Below are positions 3,153 to 39,492 of a stretch of DNA of 64,000 bases, piece by piece. Source of the stretch: an uncultured Pirellulales bacterium (GTDB lineage: Bacteria; Planctomycetota; Phycisphaerae; Sedimentisphaerales; CAYZTY01); assembly GCA_964444665.1 (NCBI GenBank), contig CAYUIE010000008.1:17163-81162 (forward strand). The letters are read 5' to 3'. The position numbers and the translations under genes are program-made. Numbering within the stretch: the first letter of the stretch is position 1; each line of letters opens with the position of its first letter. Under the pieces are notes generated by a model that did no database searches, was not told where the DNA came from, and was given only the letters and a program-made list of their open reading frames with translations.

Positions 3153-5394
3153 TAGACACGTTAAAAACTACAGAGCCTTCACATTAGTTGAGGTGATACT
3201 GGTGGTCGGCACGATAGCCCTGGTTGCAGGTACGTTGGTCGGACTGGTTATCAACAGCTATGAAGACTTCAAGCTGGGCAGCAGTCGTTCAACTTTACTA
3301 CAGGACGGCCAGTCAGCTATAGGGCAGATGGTTCGCATTCTTCGTCAGGTCATTGCCTTTAGCTCCGTAAGCGAGTCAACCGACCAGGCCGGCTACATTA
3401 CATTTACAAACATTGATGGAACCGTCGAAGAGTTCAGACTCAACACAGGAACCAGCGAACTCGAATATGGCGAGCCGGGCTCCCTAAGTGCCTTAACCGG
3501 CTCGGTAAGCAGCCTTTTTTTAACATGCTACGATATAGACGGAAATGTCCTGACAGGACCCGTCTCGGCCGGCAACGTTCAGTCGGTACAAATTGAGATG
3601 ACGCTTAACGACGGCGATAACAGCTTCACCCTCTTTGGCAGAGTCTGTTGTCCGACGGATCTTTCGAGCCTTATAGCCTGGTGGAAGCTGGATGAAACTT
3701 CCGGATTAACCGCAGCAGACAGTAGTGGCAACGACAACCACGGTACTTTACGAAATATGGCAGGTGATGAATGGACAAGCGGGGCAATGGGCGGTGCGCT
3801 GAATTTTGATGGCAACAACGACTACGTGGCCATTCAAAATCTATACTACGATGGTAGCGATTACCCGGAAATCAGCGTTACCGCCTGGATCCGCACCAGC
3901 GACGGTACCAACCAAATAATCGTTTCCTACGACCGCAATGAATACTGGCGGCTGGAGATCAACGGAAATGGTGGCGGCACAGGTCAGGTAGGCTGGGATG
4001 TACGTACCAGTAGCGGCCAGGTGGATTACGGCAGCACCACCCGTGTCGATGATGGCGCTTGGCATCATGTGGCAGGTGTATTTGATAACGGCACACTGAC
4101 CATCTACATCGATGGTAATCCGGAATCCCCGGATTCCGGGGGCAGCACCTTCGGAAGAGGAGTAAACACGCGATACGGTTTTCTGGGAGTAGGTTCGGAA
4201 GCAACTACTTTTGACGGCAATAAAGGTCCAACCAGTTACTTTGACGGCGATATGGACGATGTGCGCATCTATAACCGCGCACTGAGCGTACAAGAGATAT
4301 CACAGTTGGCCAATATCCTTAGATACCGGGAGTTTACCGAGGCCAAGACCGGTTCCAACGTTACCTCTATTACCATTTCAACGCCTACCACAAATGAGGG
4401 TGACTTACTTATCGCCGCTGTTGCCACCGATGGCGATACTTCCTCCTCGCTGGCCCCACCTGGTGGTGAAGGCTGGACTGAAATAGACGCAGGCGATTAT
4501 AACAATGAGGTTACGCTGGGTGCCTGGTGGAAACTCGCAGATGCCTCTGAGTCAGCCAGCCATCAGTTTACCTGGTCGGGCGGTCAACATGCATACGGCT
4601 GGATAATGCGGTTTACAGGCCATGATCCAAGCGACCCTATTAACGACTACTCGACCAGCGGAGAACCAAGCAGCACGCCAACCAGCCCGGCGGTAACCAC
4701 TACGGTCAGCAACTGTATGATTCTCCGACTGGGTGCGTTTGATGACGATGATATTACTGAAGATGACCCCGGACTTCCCGGTCATACGGCAATCACGATG
4801 GACAAAACCACCGCTGCGATGTTTCAGGACGGATTCGAGACAAGTTTCGACCTGTGGACCGACGGCGGAACCACAGACTGGGACAGGACATTCAGCCAGC
4901 AACACTTAGGCAGCTATTCAGCACATGCCGGCTGGTGGAATACTCAATTGACGTCCGACAATATTGACACAAGTTCTTACAGCTCTTTCACAATCGATTT
5001 CTGGTATATGGATGACGACATCGATAACAATGACGATGTTTTTCTCCAGCTTTATGATGGTGGTTCATACAACGACAGATTTGAGCTTAACATGGCACCG
5101 TCTGAGGAGGATATATGGCACAACCATAACGAAACTGTTAACGATAGCGGCGGTGATGCGCAGTACTTCAGGAACAACTTCCGCATCAGATTCGAGGCCA
5201 CCGACATCAATAACTGGCGTGAAAATCTATGGATAGACGACGTAACAGTGACCGTTGTCGGTGGTGGTACGGTCTCCGGCGGAGCCGGATACGTCAGGCA
5301 GTCCGCCATTGGTGACAGTGGCACATCTACCTTCACGCTTGGCTCATCGAACGAGGCGCGGACACTTACGATAGCAATAGCGCCGGCACCTTAA
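3136..5394 (+). CDS. Giant pseudopilin: prepilin-like N-terminus (GspJ-like by position) + LamG/concanavalin-A-like lectin domain + further beta-rich modules
   Basis: N-terminus YRAFTLVEVILVVGTIALVAG. LamG_3-type motifs at aa ~176-392 (LIAWWKLDETSG...GNDNHGTL...ALNFDGNNDYV...WHHVAGVFDNGTLTIYIDG...YFDGDMDDVRIYNRALS). C-terminal jelly-roll-like segment FQDGFETSFDLWTDGG...WIDDVTV. Confidence 0.75.
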   Translation: MPKEADRHVKNYRAFTLVEVILVVGTIALVAGTLVGLVINSYEDFKLGSSRSTLLQDGQSAIGQMVRILRQVIAFSSVSESTDQAGYITFTNIDGTVEEFRLNTGTSELEYGEPGSLSALTGSVSSLFLTCYDIDGNVLTGPVSAGNVQSVQIEMTLNDGDNSFTLFGRVCCPTDLSSLIAWWKLDETSGLTAADSSGNDNHGTLRNMAGDEWTSGAMGGALNFDGNNDYVAIQNLYYDGSDYPEISVTAWIRTSDGTNQIIVSYDRNEYWRLEINGNGGGTGQVGWDVRTSSGQVDYGSTTRVDDGAWHHVAGVFDNGTLTIYIDGNPESPDSGGSTFGRGVNTRYGFLGVGSEATTFDGNKGPTSYFDGDMDDVRIYNRALSVQEISQLANILRYREFTEAKTGSNVTSITISTPTTNEGDLLIAAVATDGDTSSSLAPPGGEGWTEIDAGDYNNEVTLGAWWKLADASESASHQFTWSGGQHAYGWIMRFTGHDPSDPINDYSTSGEPSSTPTSPAVTTTVSNCMILRLGAFDDDDITEDDPGLPGHTAITMDKTTAAMFQDGFETSFDLWTDGGTTDWDRTFSQQHLGSYSAHAGWWNTQLTSDNIDTSSYSSFTIDFWYMDDDIDNNDDVFLQLYDGGSYNDRFELNMAPSEEDIWHNHNETVNDSGGDAQYFRNNFRIRFEATDINNWRENLWIDDVTVTVVGGGTVSGGAGYVRQSAIGDSGTSTFTLGSSNEARTLTIAIAPAP

Positions 5395-33928: not shown

Positions 33929-36900
33929 TTACGCCGTTAATTCTGCAAGGTGTTTTTCAATCGCTTTCAACTGTTCTGTCAACTCAGCCAGTCTATCCCT
34001 TGCCTGAGCAACAACTTCTGGCTTGGCTTTGGTAAGAAAATTTTTATTGGCCAGCCTGGTCTCCACGGCTGTCCTGGCTTTTTCTACTTCTTTCTTTTGC
34101 TTTTCCAACCGCCGTTGCTCAGCAACTGGGTCAATCATATCGTGAACATAAATCTGGGCCGTGTCCGCGATTGTAACAGCCGAGTTTGGGGGTTTTACAA
34201 TAGCTGCCCCCGCTCGAAATTCCTTTACTCCTGCTAACTGAAGTATCAGTTCTTCATTTTCACTTAAAACTTTTACATTTTCCTGACCAAGTTTTGCGGA
34301 TACTAACAACAACTCACTCTGTGGTTTATTATATTCACTTCTGACGTCTCTTATTGCCCGGATTACAGACTGGATAAGTGTAATTTGCTTTTCAGCATCC
34401 TCATCTCTCAGGTTTTCCAGGTCTCCCGGCCATTGGGCGATAACCAATGCATCAGATTTTTCTGCCTTGGCAAGGCCTTGAAGTTTTCTGACGGGAGCGA
34501 TTTCGTTTAGCTTCTGGAAAATTCCTTCGGTGATAAACGGCACAAACGGATGCAACAATCGCAGGCTCTGGTCCAGCACAAACGCCAGGACGTTTTGAGC
34601 AATCTGTCTTTGCTGCTTATCCTGCATTCTCGGCTTAGCCCATTCGAGATACCAGTCACAAAAATCATTCCAGAAAAACCGGTAAATCTGCGCCAAAGGC
34701 TCACTATATTTAAATTCATCCAATGATTCTGTTACCGCGGAAATAGTTTGCGCCAGGCGGGAGAGAATCCACCTGTCGGTAATCGTCATCTTTTCTTTAT
34801 CAAAGCCGGCCGGGTCGACGCCCTCAAGGTTCATCAGGGCAAAACGGGAAGCGTTCCAGAGCTTATTACAGAAGTTTCGGCCGATATCAAACTTGGGCGA
34901 TGTATTTACCGTCCGCCCGTCGGGCAGCTTCATTTTTTTCACCGGCATACGTACGTCCTGCGTCTGCGTAGTCATACTGGCCAGGGTAAAACGCATTGCG
35001 TCGGCGCCGTGGCTGTTGATTGCAACAAGCGGGTCGATGCCGTTGCCTAAGCTTTTAGACATCTTGCGTCCTTCGCCGTCCTGAATCATAGCGTGAATAA
35101 AAACGTCACTGAATGGAATATCGCCGATGCAATACTGGCCCATCATTAGCATACGCGATACCCACAGCGTGATAATCTCACGCGCAGTACAAAGCACATC
35201 ACCCGGATAGAAGGTTTTTAAATCATCTGTATCGTCCGGCCAGCCCATCGTGCTGAATGGCCAAAGCGCCGAACTAAACCAAGTATCCAAAACATCCTCA
35301 TCGCGATTCCAAACCTGTACATGCTTCTCAAACTCGGAGCAAGCCTTTCGTCTTTCTGGCACACCTGTAATACCCTCAACCCGTTTAATACGAGGAAACG
35401 CTTGCCCCGGCTTTATTGCGCCTATACCATCAGGGATGGAAAATAGAAACTTACCAACTAGATTGAGGATATCATCACCATCTGGCGTTTCGAGACATAC
35501 GTATCCAGTACACAATTCGCTTTTGGAAGCACAAACTCTGAAACCAATATCTTCGCGCCCAAAAGCACGCAATAAATCTTTAAGTGCGGTTTCAAATATT
35601 GGAGTTGGATTGGAATATTCGGAAGCACTTAAGTTGGCGCTTTTGAGTTCCATTTTCCAAATTGGTATTCTATGCCCCCACCAGAGCTGTCGGCTGATGG
35701 GCCAGTCGCGCAGGTTTTCCAGCCAGGCCTGGTAGGTTTTGGCATATCGCTCAGGGATAAACCGCAGTCGGCCGTCAAGCAGTGGTTTCAATGCCAGGCC
35801 GGCCAAGGAATTCACAGGTACATCAGTGCCCCTGATAAAATCTTCTTCAAGGCACAAGTCACGAGTCACGAGCGACGGAATCGGTTCCTTGACGGCGATA
35901 TACCACTGGTCGGACAGATACGGCTCGATAGGTACGTGGCTGCGATAACTATGGCCGACCTCGTGGGTGTATTCGCGAACATCATCGAGCAATTTTTCCG
36001 TTCGGAACCACTCGACGACGGCCTCGCGGGCCTCGAACCGGTCCATACCGATAAGATTTTCAACATCGGGATTTTTAATATCTTCCCAGTCCGTCCAGCC
36101 ATATTTGTCGCTGATGGAGCCGTCCGGCGCCATAACGTTTACGATTGGCAGACTATTTCGCTGGCCGATTTCCCAGTCGTCCGGGTCGTGAGCGGGCGTT
36201 ACCTTCAAAAAGCCGGTCGAGAATTTGGCCTTCTCATCTTCACCGTCAGGGTCGGGCAGCACAACATGCTCATCAGCAATTATAGGAATTATGCGTCCGA
36301 CAATCGGCAGCCGTACCATCTTACCCAGCAGATGTTTGGCTCGTGGATCGTTCGGATTCATTGCAACGGCCGTATCACCAAGCATCGTTTCGGGCCGGGT
36401 AGTAGCGACGGTAACGTGTGTTATTGTGGCACGGGCATCTTGCCCGTGTATCTTGCCTATCGCGTCCGGACTTACGCCAACCCACGCCCAATTTTCAAGT
36501 CCCGCCTTGGCAGGATTATTGAGGATATAGTCGACTTGGTGGTTAAAGTCTTCTTCTTCACGGATGATATGGTCGTAATATTCGTCTTGCCAGAACGACT
36601 CGTTGCGTCCCAGCAATTTATTGGCTTTGTTTGCCGTATACGATTTCCAGGAATGTAGTATGGTCGGTAATTCTTCTCCTGGGCGTGGTCTTATTACTGC
36701 GTGTACATGATTCGGCATAATCACCCATACAATCAGATCATATCGTTTGCCGTCAAAGTGCTTCAAGGCATTCTGAACCAACTCGGCAATCCTCGGATCT
36801 CGCAGATAGCATCGCCCATGTCCTGCGTTGAGAAACGACTCAACATGGTCACAATAGAGTCGCGTAAGCTCTCGTTGTTCCTTCGGTGTTGGCTCACGGC

Positions 36901-37765
36901 CTTGTGTCCCAGCCTGCTGAACAAACCTGTCGCGTTGCGAGTGCCAGCGTTCAAGCACCTCGGCAGGCAACGAGTCAGCCAAACGGAATGTTACAGCATA
37001 TGTCGAACCGGCCTGAGTCCAATGAGGCAGATATGCACCTTTTCGCCTACGGACCACCTCATCCACGGCCTGGAAGGCCGTGCCACATGGGACCTCAACC
37101 GGCTCAACTAATGGATAGCGCATATACCAGAAATGCCCTTTTACCGTCTCGTGCTCGACTTCATCGTCGGCCAGCACGGTCTGCGTTGCGGGGTCCCAGT
37201 TGACAAGTCTTTTGCCGCGATAAATCAGGCCATCCTTAAAGAGCTGGAAGAACGCGGCCCGCACTGCCTTCGCGCAAACAGGGTCCATCGTGAAGCGCGT
37301 TCTGGCCCAGTCGCACGAGCAGCCCATCGCCTTTAACTGATTAATAATTGTGGCTTCGTATTCGTCCTTCCAGGCCTGCACATGGGCGATAAACTCATCG
37401 CGCTGGAAATCTGTGCGTTTTTTGCCTTGTTCCGCAAGCAGTCTTTTCTCAACAACGGTCTGAGTGGCGATGCCGGCGTGGTCGGTGCCCGGGAGCCATA
37501 GCGTGTTATATTTTTGCATCCGCCGAAACCGAATCAGGATATCCTGGAGGGTATTATTTAGTGCGTGTCCTAAGTGCAGCGGAGCGGTAACGTTAGGCGG
37601 CGGGATAACAATCGTATAAGGCTTAACCGCCCTGCCGTCGCCCGAAGCGCCTGTACTGAGCGTAGCCGAAGTATTGGCGTGAAAATAACCGCGCGAGAGC
37701 CAGATTTCGCTTACATTTTTTTCCGTCTGCTCAGGCTCGTAAGTTTTTTCAAGTTCTACTGACAA
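33929..37765 (-). CDS. valS: Valine--tRNA ligase carrying two large in-frame insertions (1278 aa)
   Basis: TTG start. PPPNVTAPLHLGHALN (HIGH), ATTRPETMLGDTAV, WPISRQLWWGHRIP, DEDVLDTWFSS, KMSKSLGN, C-terminal coiled coil. Uninterrupted ORF. Confidence 0.93.
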   Translation of the reverse strand: MSVELEKTYEPEQTEKNVSEIWLSRGYFHANTSATLSTGASGDGRAVKPYTIVIPPPNVTAPLHLGHALNNTLQDILIRFRRMQKYNTLWLPGTDHAGIATQTVVEKRLLAEQGKKRTDFQRDEFIAHVQAWKDEYEATIINQLKAMGCSCDWARTRFTMDPVCAKAVRAAFFQLFKDGLIYRGKRLVNWDPATQTVLADDEVEHETVKGHFWYMRYPLVEPVEVPCGTAFQAVDEVVRRRKGAYLPHWTQAGSTYAVTFRLADSLPAEVLERWHSQRDRFVQQAGTQGREPTPKEQRELTRLYCDHVESFLNAGHGRCYLRDPRIAELVQNALKHFDGKRYDLIVWVIMPNHVHAVIRPRPGEELPTILHSWKSYTANKANKLLGRNESFWQDEYYDHIIREEEDFNHQVDYILNNPAKAGLENWAWVGVSPDAIGKIHGQDARATITHVTVATTRPETMLGDTAVAMNPNDPRAKHLLGKMVRLPIVGRIIPIIADEHVVLPDPDGEDEKAKFSTGFLKVTPAHDPDDWEIGQRNSLPIVNVMAPDGSISDKYGWTDWEDIKNPDVENLIGMDRFEAREAVVEWFRTEKLLDDVREYTHEVGHSYRSHVPIEPYLSDQWYIAVKEPIPSLVTRDLCLEEDFIRGTDVPVNSLAGLALKPLLDGRLRFIPERYAKTYQAWLENLRDWPISRQLWWGHRIPIWKMELKSANLSASEYSNPTPIFETALKDLLRAFGREDIGFRVCASKSELCTGYVCLETPDGDDILNLVGKFLFSIPDGIGAIKPGQAFPRIKRVEGITGVPERRKACSEFEKHVQVWNRDEDVLDTWFSSALWPFSTMGWPDDTDDLKTFYPGDVLCTAREIITLWVSRMLMMGQYCIGDIPFSDVFIHAMIQDGEGRKMSKSLGNGIDPLVAINSHGADAMRFTLASMTTQTQDVRMPVKKMKLPDGRTVNTSPKFDIGRNFCNKLWNASRFALMNLEGVDPAGFDKEKMTITDRWILSRLAQTISAVTESLDEFKYSEPLAQIYRFFWNDFCDWYLEWAKPRMQDKQQRQIAQNVLAFVLDQSLRLLHPFVPFITEGIFQKLNEIAPVRKLQGLAKAEKSDALVIAQWPGDLENLRDEDAEKQITLIQSVIRAIRDVRSEYNKPQSELLLVSAKLGQENVKVLSENEELILQLAGVKEFRAGAAIVKPPNSAVTIADTAQIYVHDMIDPVAEQRRLEKQKKEVEKARTAVETRLANKNFLTKAKPEVVAQARDRLAELTEQLKAIEKHLAELTA
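36422..37102 (-). mobile_element. REP-flanked RayT/IS200-like (COG1943, Y1 HUH) transposase module embedded in frame in valS
   Basis: valS aa ~222-448: RRRKGAYLPHW, YAVTFRLADSLP, VIMPNHVHAVI (HUH), WQDEYYDHIIR, VDYILNNPAKAGL (catalytic Tyr helix). Bounded by hairpins at 37064-37082 and 36430-36448. Confidence 0.75.
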
Positions 37766-37863: not shown

Positions 37864-37899
37864 TAAAACAAAATTCCGGCGAAAGACATTCGCCGGAAT
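37864..37899 (-). terminator. Intrinsic terminator downstream of rho
   Basis: 11-bp stem ATTCCGGCGAA/TTCGCCGGAAT (37873-37883 / 37889-37899), 5-nt loop, followed on the minus strand by TTTGTTTTAT. Confidence 0.8.
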
Positions 37900-37989: not shown

Positions 37990-39492
37990 TTAATCAAGGT
38001 TCATAGTCATCAGGAATTCTGCGTTAGACCGCACCTTTGAGAGTCGGCTCTTGAGCAGCTCAATGGCCTCAATCGAATTCATATCACTGAGCACACGCCT
38101 TAGCCGATATACCAGCTCAAGCTCTTTGGGCTCCAGCAGCAGCTCTTCCCTTCTCGTGCCGCTCCGGCTTATATCGATAGCCGGCCAGATTCTTCTATCC
38201 ACAAGGCGGCGGTCGAGGTGCAGTTCCATATTACCCGTTGCCTTGAATTCTTCGAAAATCACCTCGTCCATTTTTGAGCCGGTATCGATAAGGCAGGTTG
38301 CGAATATAGTCAGCGAGCCGCCGTCTTCCACGTTTCTGGCGGCGCCGAAGAATTTTTTAGGCATCTGCATCGCGCCGGAGTCTACGCCGCCCGTCAGAAT
38401 TTTACCCGAGTGCGGCGTCTCGGTGTTGTAAGCCCGTGCCAGACGCGTCAGAGAATCGAGAAGAATTACGACATCCTGCTCGTATTCCACAAGACGCTTG
38501 GCCTTTTCGATTACCACTTCCGATACCTGGCAGTGCCGTGCGGCCGGCTCGTCGAAGGTGCTGCTTATGACTTCCACGTCCTCGGCCGTTTTTCTTTCCA
38601 TTTCGGTAACTTCTTCCGGCCGTTCGTCTATCAACAGCACAATCAACTTGACTTCAGGGTAATTAGTGCTGATGGCATTAGCAATTTTTTGCAGCAATAC
38701 GGTCTTGCCTGTCCGCGGCGGAGCGACTATCAGGCCACGTTGGCCCTTGCCGATGGGTGTTACCATATCAATGATTCTCATGCCGAGTTCCTCGGAGGTC
38801 GTTTCAAGGATAAATCTATTCTCAGGATGCAGCGGGGTTAGGTCGCTAAAGACTACCTTTTCAGCGAGCCTATCGGGGTCTTCGAAATTTATCGCCTCAA
38901 CGCGGAGCAGTGCAAAATACTTCTCCAGGTCCTTGGGCGGGCGAATCTGGCCTGAGACGATGTTGCCGCTGCGCAGACCGAAACGTCTGATTTGCGAGGG
39001 CGAGACGTAAATGTCGTCAGGCGAAGACAGATAGTTGTAACGCGGATTGCGGAGAAACCCGAAACCGTCCGGCAGGACTTCCAGAACACCCTCTCCGTAC
39101 ATCAACCCATTTTGCCTGATACGTTCTTTAAGTATTTTGAAAATCAGGTCCTGCTTTTTAAGGCCGGTATATTCCTTGAGCCCTTCATTCCTGGCGATGT
39201 TGTGCAGCTCGGCCACAGTCAGGTTTTGAAGGTCGGTTATGTGCAGATTACCCTTTTTAATTCGCTCGTATTTGGCATGTATCGATTCTTCCTCACTGAG
39301 CTTTTCTTTTTGCTTTGCCTGCTCAGGAGTCTGCTCAACCTGCTCGACCACCGTGGTTGTCGTGTCGGGCTCTTCTTGATTCGTCTGCGTTTTCTCGACG
39401 GCATTTTTCTCTTCGGAGGTCTTGGCCCTTCTTGAATTTTTTCTCCTTTTCGTCGTCCTTGTTTCGCCGTTCTTCTCATCGTCTTTAGCCAT
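37990..39492 (-). CDS. rho: Transcription termination factor Rho with ~80-aa K/E/T-rich N-terminal extension
   Basis: Rho_[28 protein letters not shown]-binding GFGFLR, Walker [34 protein letters not shown]. Confidence 0.93.

Follow-up and report, generated by a model that had tools for sequence, protein, structure and literature searches.

The valS gene of an uncultured Pirellulales bacterium, which encodes valyl-tRNA synthetase (ValRS), has an in-frame insert with a domain resembling REP-associated tyrosine transposases (RayT), and this domain is enclosed by two palindromes that are themselves translated. The gene is encoded on the minus strand of the stretch of DNA analysed here (contig CAYUIE010000008.1, positions 17,163 to 81,162; 64,000 nucleotides), which we call the window. 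A first-pass annotation, made from the letters of the window, had described the palindromes as hairpins similar to repetitive extragenic palindromes (REPs) and had proposed that they and the RayT form a 'REPtron/IS200-IS605-type unit' that was inserted or captured as DNA. The locus is organised as follows, with 4ER8 being the structure of TnpAREP of E. coli:

33929 to 37765, minus strand: valS open reading frame (ORF) of 1278 amino acids; the insert lies inside one uninterrupted frame, and the Pfam domains tRNA-synt_1, Anticodon_1 and Val_tRNA-synt_C are in the same ORF as Y1_Tnp.
36425 to 37090, minus strand: the cassette proper (REP, linker, RayT, linker, REP), which takes the place of a four-residue turn in the sequence VEPVEI-[E/D]GK[R/K]-IEH of orthologues with an empty site.
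37064 to 37086, minus strand: upstream REP unit, consisting of a GTGG head (37083 to 37086) and the hairpin CACGGCCT-TCC-AGGCCGTG (37064 to 37082); translated as (C)GTAFQAV.
37040 to 37063, minus strand: linker DEVVRRRK, from the upstream REP to the RayT core.
36473 to 37039, minus strand: RayT core (TnpAREP-like, Y1_Tnp), GAYLPHW...NWAWVGV.
36701 to 36709, minus strand: HUH motif, H353-V-H355 of MPNHVH; aligns with H59-M-H61 of 4ER8 and is invariant in the family alignment.
36527 to 36529, minus strand: Y413 of VDYILNNP, putatively the catalytic tyrosine; invariant in the family, with Y115 of 4ER8 (VDYIYINP) as its counterpart in the alignment.
36449 to 36472, minus strand: linker SPDAIGKI, from the RayT core to the downstream REP.
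36426 to 36448, plus strand: downstream REP unit, consisting of a GTGG head (36426 to 36429) and the hairpin CACGGGCA-TCT-TGCCCGTG (36430 to 36448); its minus-strand reading is HGQDARAT.
36425 to 36451: left arm of a 27-nucleotide imperfect inverted repeat (78%) of the two REP units.
37061 to 37087: right arm of the same repeat.

The size of the insert was measured between the anchors RYPL and VTVATTRPET: RYPL and VTVA are 693 nucleotides apart in the window valS versus 39 nucleotides in about 50 orthologues. The insertion point is between residues 203 and 210 of the T. thermophilus ValRS 1GAX, in the first loop of the CP1 editing domain, and the junctions in the protein read PC/GT and AT/IT. 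The RayT of the window is internal to the 1278 amino acid valS ORF rather than a separate gene that starts and stops on its own.

Both palindromes, CACGGGC-ATCTT-GCCCGTG at 36430-36448 and CACGGCC-TGGAA-GGCCGTG at 37064-37082, are exactly where the first-pass annotation had placed them and are translated as HGQDARAT and GTAFQAV, respectively, in the valS frame, as it had said; its stems of 7 bp with 5-nucleotide loops are really stems of 8 bp with loops of three nucleotides. Each hairpin has GTGG on its outer side (36426-36429 on the plus and 37083-37086 on the minus strand), the GT[AG]G head of REPs, and also the GC-rich stable stem-loop of a REP: folded as single-stranded DNA, the hairpins reach -9.4 to -10.1 kcal/mol (z -3.9 to -5.9) and no shuffled sequence folds as well. 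The pattern CACGGSC-N5-GSCCGTG occurs at just these two sites of the window, even with one mismatch allowed, and in 0/100 shuffles. When the window was scanned for GC-rich 8-bp stems with a TCY loop, three matches were returned versus 0.3 for shuffled sequences, and the GT head is restricted to the two palindromes, so that pattern search and scan alike bear out the earlier statement that there is no other copy in the 64 kb. Neither a second RayT nor further REP units were found in the 64-kb window. The hairpins have no terminator-like tail and no match in Rfam. A perfect 7-bp hairpin of unrelated sequence (CGGCGAA-AGACA-TTCGCCG, 37877-37895) is present in the spacer between rho and valS.

Single 7-bp hairpins are common, with 52 in the window versus about 25 in shuffles, and the palindromes could therefore be thought to be a product of chance or of codon usage. 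The pair is however found in 0/100 shuffles, and hairpins are present in every valS insert that we examined, with differing peptides. This recurrence in orthologues and the compensatory changes in the stems (see below) rule out chance or codon-driven palindromes for all practical purposes. The same low probability applies to an intein-like, protein-splicing element: the insert has no Hint or intein domain, and Y1_Tnp is the only Pfam domain in it.

By Pfam, by its sequence match to 4ER8 and by its predicted fold, the insert is a RayT. Pfam Y1_Tnp (PF01797) is detected with 32.6-34.6 bits (cut-off 23), in a RayT-like family that is very large (6133 matches at E<1e-5). The family profile matches E. 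coli TnpAREP 4ER8 with E=7e-10, with the HUH motif and Tyr115 aligned, and an AlphaFold (AF2) model of the insert (pLDDT, the predicted local distance difference test, of 86) has 4ER8 as its best fold match in the PDB (E=1.3e-8), a record with the title 'REP-associated tyrosine transposase bound to a REP hairpin'. TnpA structures of the IS200/IS605 family (IS608/ISDra2) rank behind 4ER8 in the fold search. The motifs NHVH, WQ and YILNNP of the insert place it in class 2 (TnpAREP), similar to subclass 2.4 or 2.7, for which the motifs NH[IFV]H, WQ and YIxNNP have been defined (Quentin 2018, PMC6006769). The catalytic motifs are kept in all valS-borne RayT cores and these cores are under strong purifying selection, with dN/dS of 0.06-0.11 versus 0.04-0.14 for the valS flanks.

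The HUH/Y1 transposase fold, the subterminal hairpins and the position of IS608 and ISDra2 TnpA as next-best structural matches are also what would be expected of an insertion sequence of the IS200/IS605 type, with the two palindromes as left-end and right-end hairpins. We consider this very improbable: the best match is to TnpAREP 4ER8, the tyrosine motif is YxxxNP (YILNNP) rather than the class-1 motif Y....Q (PMC6006769), the ends are inverted and not direct, no tnpB was found and no ORF of the size of tnpB is adjacent in the window, and REP singlets and doublets are dispersed separately. Thus, the REPtron half of the earlier description holds (inverted REPs, GT[AG]G heads, RayT), while its IS200/IS605 half fails on the tyrosine motif, on the orientation of the ends and on the absence of tnpB.

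A genome scan for ValRS yielded 80 loci of Phycisphaerae/Sedimentisphaerales type (L numbers in the following). The site is filled in 15 loci and in the window, with 693-804 nucleotides between the anchors and always a multiple of three; it is empty in about 57 of the scanned loci, usually with 39 nucleotides and the sequence VEPVEI-[E/D]GK[R/K]-IEH. The first-pass annotation had named a lack of the hairpins in orthologous ValRS insertions as evidence that would speak against it, but hairpins of the same family are present at both edges in 15/15 further inserts that have both edges on the contig (L002, L004-L010, L012, L013, L031, L033, L035, L044, L081). They are also found at both edges of the L084 insert and, in the truncated L001, at both ends of the portion present. 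Each edge has between one and three hairpins of 8 bp with three-nucleotide loops. The loops read TCC or TCT upstream versus GGA or AGA downstream, with the GT head pointing outward; therefore, the two sides are inverted. Tandem REP units are spaced by 24 nucleotides and, because this period corresponds to eight codons, the reading frame is kept. L044 has a RayT between direct repeats of a two-hairpin, REPIN-like module (3651-3700 and 4299-4348; GTAFQAVxxxNTGRMxVP on both sides) rather than simple inverted singlets. In L002 (2380-3260) and L084 (1736-7230), both from one long-read sample (ERZ25039515), valS, RayT and rho are split by frameshifts; a programmed frameshift for the out-of-frame RayT of L002 was considered and dropped, as rho is split too in L084 of the same sample, and these are most likely assembly indels and not pseudogenes.

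The stem sequences vary between lineages yet stay complementary (CACGGGCT, CACGGCCT, CGCGGGCG, CGAAGGCG, CGAGAGCG and others). Both sides have changed in 6/8 stem pairs, with 121 double-changed cells of the alignment versus 29 in shuffles; when the register is slid, pairing falls to 29-48%, and G-U pairs make up 11/712 cells. Positions G3 and T4 of the unit are invariant, although the units of that set had been selected for GT. The peptide, by contrast, varies: strand and frame decide whether one and the same unit is translated as GTAFQAV, HGQDARAT or TGRMPVP. As the palindrome is kept and the peptide is not, selection acts on the nucleic acid. Homologous proteins have recurring peptides around the RayT core (GTGVPPV/GTAVPAV and HGQDAHAT), sometimes as tandem arrays, and at the DNA level these are palindromes of the REP type. 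REP units are free of stop codons in all six frames in 78% of cases, versus 52% for random sequences of equal GC content and 9% at the GC content of the window.

Conservation of pairing would also be explained by a role of the hairpins as RNA in the valS mRNA, for example as stabilisers or as pause sites that bracket the inserted domain. The hairpins are transcribed and translated, a few G-U pairs are present, and Di Nocera 2013 (PMC3733652) argued that many REPs act as RNA. However, units of the same type flank free-standing RayT genes and occur as intergenic doublets in both orientations, the hairpins lack an Rfam match and a terminator-like tail, and they coincide with breakpoints in the DNA, which makes an RNA-level role improbable, if less so than an IS200/IS605 element.

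The dispersal of the units was followed in a second set of 80 metagenomic RayT relatives (L087-L166), in which units were counted within 150 nucleotides of the RayT. A lack of kinship with the hairpins at free RayT genes was part of the other result that the first-pass annotation had named as speaking against it, and the check came out in its favour: related units are present on both sides in 61/80 loci, with opposite loop polarity as in valS, and their density is 9.4/kb at the RayT borders versus 0.8/kb elsewhere, about 12-fold. The hairpins of the window thus belong to a family that flanks this RayT clade wherever it is found. REP doublets are also found in related genomes away from RayT, both intergenic and intragenic and in both orientations, and some are in valS at other sites. 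RayT-free singlets or doublets elsewhere in valS were found in L022 (1785-1826), L031 (4498-4971), L037 (540-581) and L059 (1284-1344); valS therefore tolerates units at several positions.

About 24 of the 80 metagenomic RayT relatives (about 30%) are embedded in-frame, defined by a RayT frame that is open for more than 100 codons on each side and by host domains on each side. The hosts are ValRS, AlaRS, LeuRS, DinG/XPD-type helicases, MetH, IspG and GH38 as well as Type ISP, MmeI-like and N6 methylase enzymes of restriction-modification; Sua5 and NadE are RayT hosts too, and L003 and L085 are among the embedded examples. Nearly all embedded RayTs have kept the HUH and Tyr motifs. In trees, the grouping of RayT cores largely follows the host gene: those from MetH and IspG form clades of their own, and all the valS-borne RayTs are in one group with weak bootstrap support for the deep nodes, in which NadE and AlaRS are nested. 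Two sequences first listed as non-valS were nested among the valS RayTs and have a visible context: P0025 is another valS insert, and P0003 is in nadE.

In a bootstrapped neighbour-joining tree of the ValRS protein with the insert removed, filled and empty sites are interleaved: the window groups with L011 (empty, 100%), L009 with L069 (empty, 99%) and L008 with L074 (100% bootstrap). The closest relative of the window valS, L011, has thus an empty site. Distances of hosts and of RayTs do not correlate (Pearson -0.007) and the two hosts L005 and L081 have a p-distance of 0.06 versus 0.43 for their RayTs, which rules out simple vertical co-inheritance of insert and host. At the DNA level, L005 and L081 are 90-97% identical through the outermost upstream REP, about 55% inside, and about 90% again just past the downstream end of the insert: the divergent segment of these otherwise near-identical valS genes is bounded by the hairpins. 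Capture or movement as DNA, as proposed by the first-pass annotation, is supported by this hairpin-bounded swap of the core together with the patchy distribution. L074 (3631-3690) matches L008 at about 96% identity as far as the end of the first REP, but everything beyond it is absent, so that a solo REP remains. The same ValRS loop holds two inverted hairpins but no RayT in L038 (3625-3705) and a long palindrome of unrelated sequence, GGTTCCGGGTTCGG...CCGAACCCGGAACC, in L078 (3643-3747). It thus seems to be a place where palindromes insert often or are readily tolerated.

These data also bear on the possibility that the insert is a frozen relic, having entered valS once, with the RayT domesticated for a host function (for example nucleic acid binding) and the hairpins inactive leftovers. 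The RayT is as constrained as valS, there is one REP on each side and none elsewhere in the window, and RayT cores group largely by host gene, all as would be expected of a relic. Yet most orthologues, including the closest, L011, have no insert, and the insert is therefore dispensable for ValRS. Moreover, a relic would not be expected to keep perfect pairing through compensatory changes, to have its core swapped between near-identical hosts with a drop in identity at the outermost hairpin, or to be present as the same cassette in unrelated enzymes. We regard a relic as unlikely, albeit the most probable of the alternatives considered.

The explanation that we favour, with a probability of roughly 80%, is that the palindromes are REP elements and make up the two ends, inverted and facing outward, of a cassette similar to a REPtron, inserted in-frame at the tip of the first ValRS CP1 loop. 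By analogy with the biology of TnpAREP and IS608 (PMC3479197, PMC8266576), the RayT domain, made only as a part of ValRS, would bind the hairpins on single-stranded DNA and would cut near the GTGG head, as E. coli TnpAREP does at its REPs. Such cutting, or recombination at the REPs, would be how the cassette is gained, lost and replaced, and would also spread REP singlets and doublets. Translation of the hairpins would be a by-product, tolerated at a permissive surface loop: because the units are GC-rich, mostly free of stops, 24 nucleotides long and located in a surface loop, the synthetase would still work, and deletion of the element from an essential gene would be difficult. By residing there, the element may be protected from deletion and be expressed along with its host.

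Several points weigh against this explanation. The host trees were built by neighbour joining and are weakly supported at their deep nodes, and the units used for the covariation analysis were picked for being paired, so that any percentage of paired positions is circular. Excision of the insert, which the first-pass annotation had tied to an active nuclease, stays conditional: REP-bounded differences in presence and absence do occur (L074), but the DGKR turn is present in ordinary empty sites and absent from filled sites; empty sites are therefore not simple, clean products of excision. The 64 kb hold only two REP units, both intragenic, while REPs are typically high-copy and mostly extragenic. 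Nuclease activity of the present-day RayT is putative, by analogy with TnpAREP, and a RayT locked within a 1278 amino acid enzyme may be sterically limited.

A broader proposal, which in our view has even odds, is that REP-RayT-REP cassettes of this kind have an intein-like lifestyle: they would persist in-frame in surface loops of essential enzymes, be expressed only within the host protein and be exchanged, lost and regained at the same site via their REP ends, giving rise to host-gene-specific lineages with occasional jumps (ValRS to NadE/AlaRS). It would cover ValRS, AlaRS, LeuRS, MetH, IspG, DinG-type helicases, NadE, Sua5 and restriction-modification enzymes, and the translated REP hairpins would be the enabling cis-acting ends.

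The gene order coaE-rho-valS-BFN around the cassette is kept in the related loci L002 and L084. Rho (37990-39492) is a protein of 500 amino acids with a long, charged, low-complexity N-terminal extension before Rho_N.

REP-RAYT (TnpAREP) systems were reportedly described by Nunvar in 2010 and Ton-Hoang in 2012, and palindromic elements of Rickettsia, located in-frame within genes, are said to have been reported by Ogata in 2000. We rate REPs, RayTs, REPtrons and short in-frame REPs as already known, and the hairpins of the window as ordinary REPs in an unusual setting. The REPtron, with its inverted REPs headed by GT[AG]G, is an established layout (PMC3733652, PMC6006769), and the structure of TnpAREP is known as well (Messing 2012, PMC3479197). 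In-frame REPs have been described too: GTAG-20 of O. terrae, whose heads read GTGG, and REPs of tRNA synthetase genes are examples (PMC3733652), and REPs are also known from within tnpAREP genes. A complete RayT with its REPs translated inside a host ORF was not found in the literature that we searched, an absence that is no proof of novelty. Unusually long RayT proteins were discarded as fusions or errors by Quentin 2018 (PMC6006769); such 'fusion' RayTs can be real, which is a warning for annotation. The usual view of REP/RAYT systems is of a domesticated transposase located between genes, present once and inherited vertically, and in-frame REPs are known only as short additions to proteins. 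The cassette suggests a third route into essential genes for a nuclease-encoding element, besides inteins and RNA splicing (IStrons, group I/II introns), namely to stay in the protein, and it has relatives in a dozen other core enzymes. It is also a natural experiment on the tolerance of ValRS to the insertion of a domain, and the fusion enzyme and its own two hairpins are a testable pair of enzyme and substrate for the mobilisation of REPs.

Compared with known systems, the valS unit is closest to a REPtron in that its RayT is flanked by inverted, GC-rich palindromes with GT[AG]G heads, shares the HUH motif, the Tyr motif and the fold of 4ER8, and is accompanied by REP singlets and doublets dispersed in related genomes. 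It differs in being wholly in-frame in an essential gene, with a RayT for which neither a start nor a stop of its own is visible, and in being patchily distributed among species; classical RAYTs, by contrast, are portrayed as present in one copy and passed on vertically. With IS608 and ISDra2 of the IS200/IS605 family it shares the Y1 HUH fold and, by analogy, would share the recognition of hairpins on single-stranded DNA; tyrosine motif, orientation of the ends, absence of tnpB and the lack of multiple identical copies set it apart. Like the palindromic elements of Rickettsia and the REPs of O. terrae, its palindromes are translated within functional proteins at permissive loops, and GTAG-20 of O. 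terrae also has a GTGG head and a host in the Planctomycetes-Verrucomicrobia-Chlamydiae (PVC) superphylum; however, those short repeats encode 20-80 residues, while the repeats in valS bracket a complete transposase domain of about 190 residues. Inteins with homing endonucleases and IStrons (PMC4227781) are similar in being selfish, nuclease-encoding elements in conserved, often essential genes (aminoacyl-tRNA synthetases, helicases, MetH, IspG) that they do not destroy, with a patchy distribution and host-gene-specific lineages. Unlike these, the valS element has neither protein nor RNA splicing and stays in the mature protein, and its nuclease is of the HUH type.

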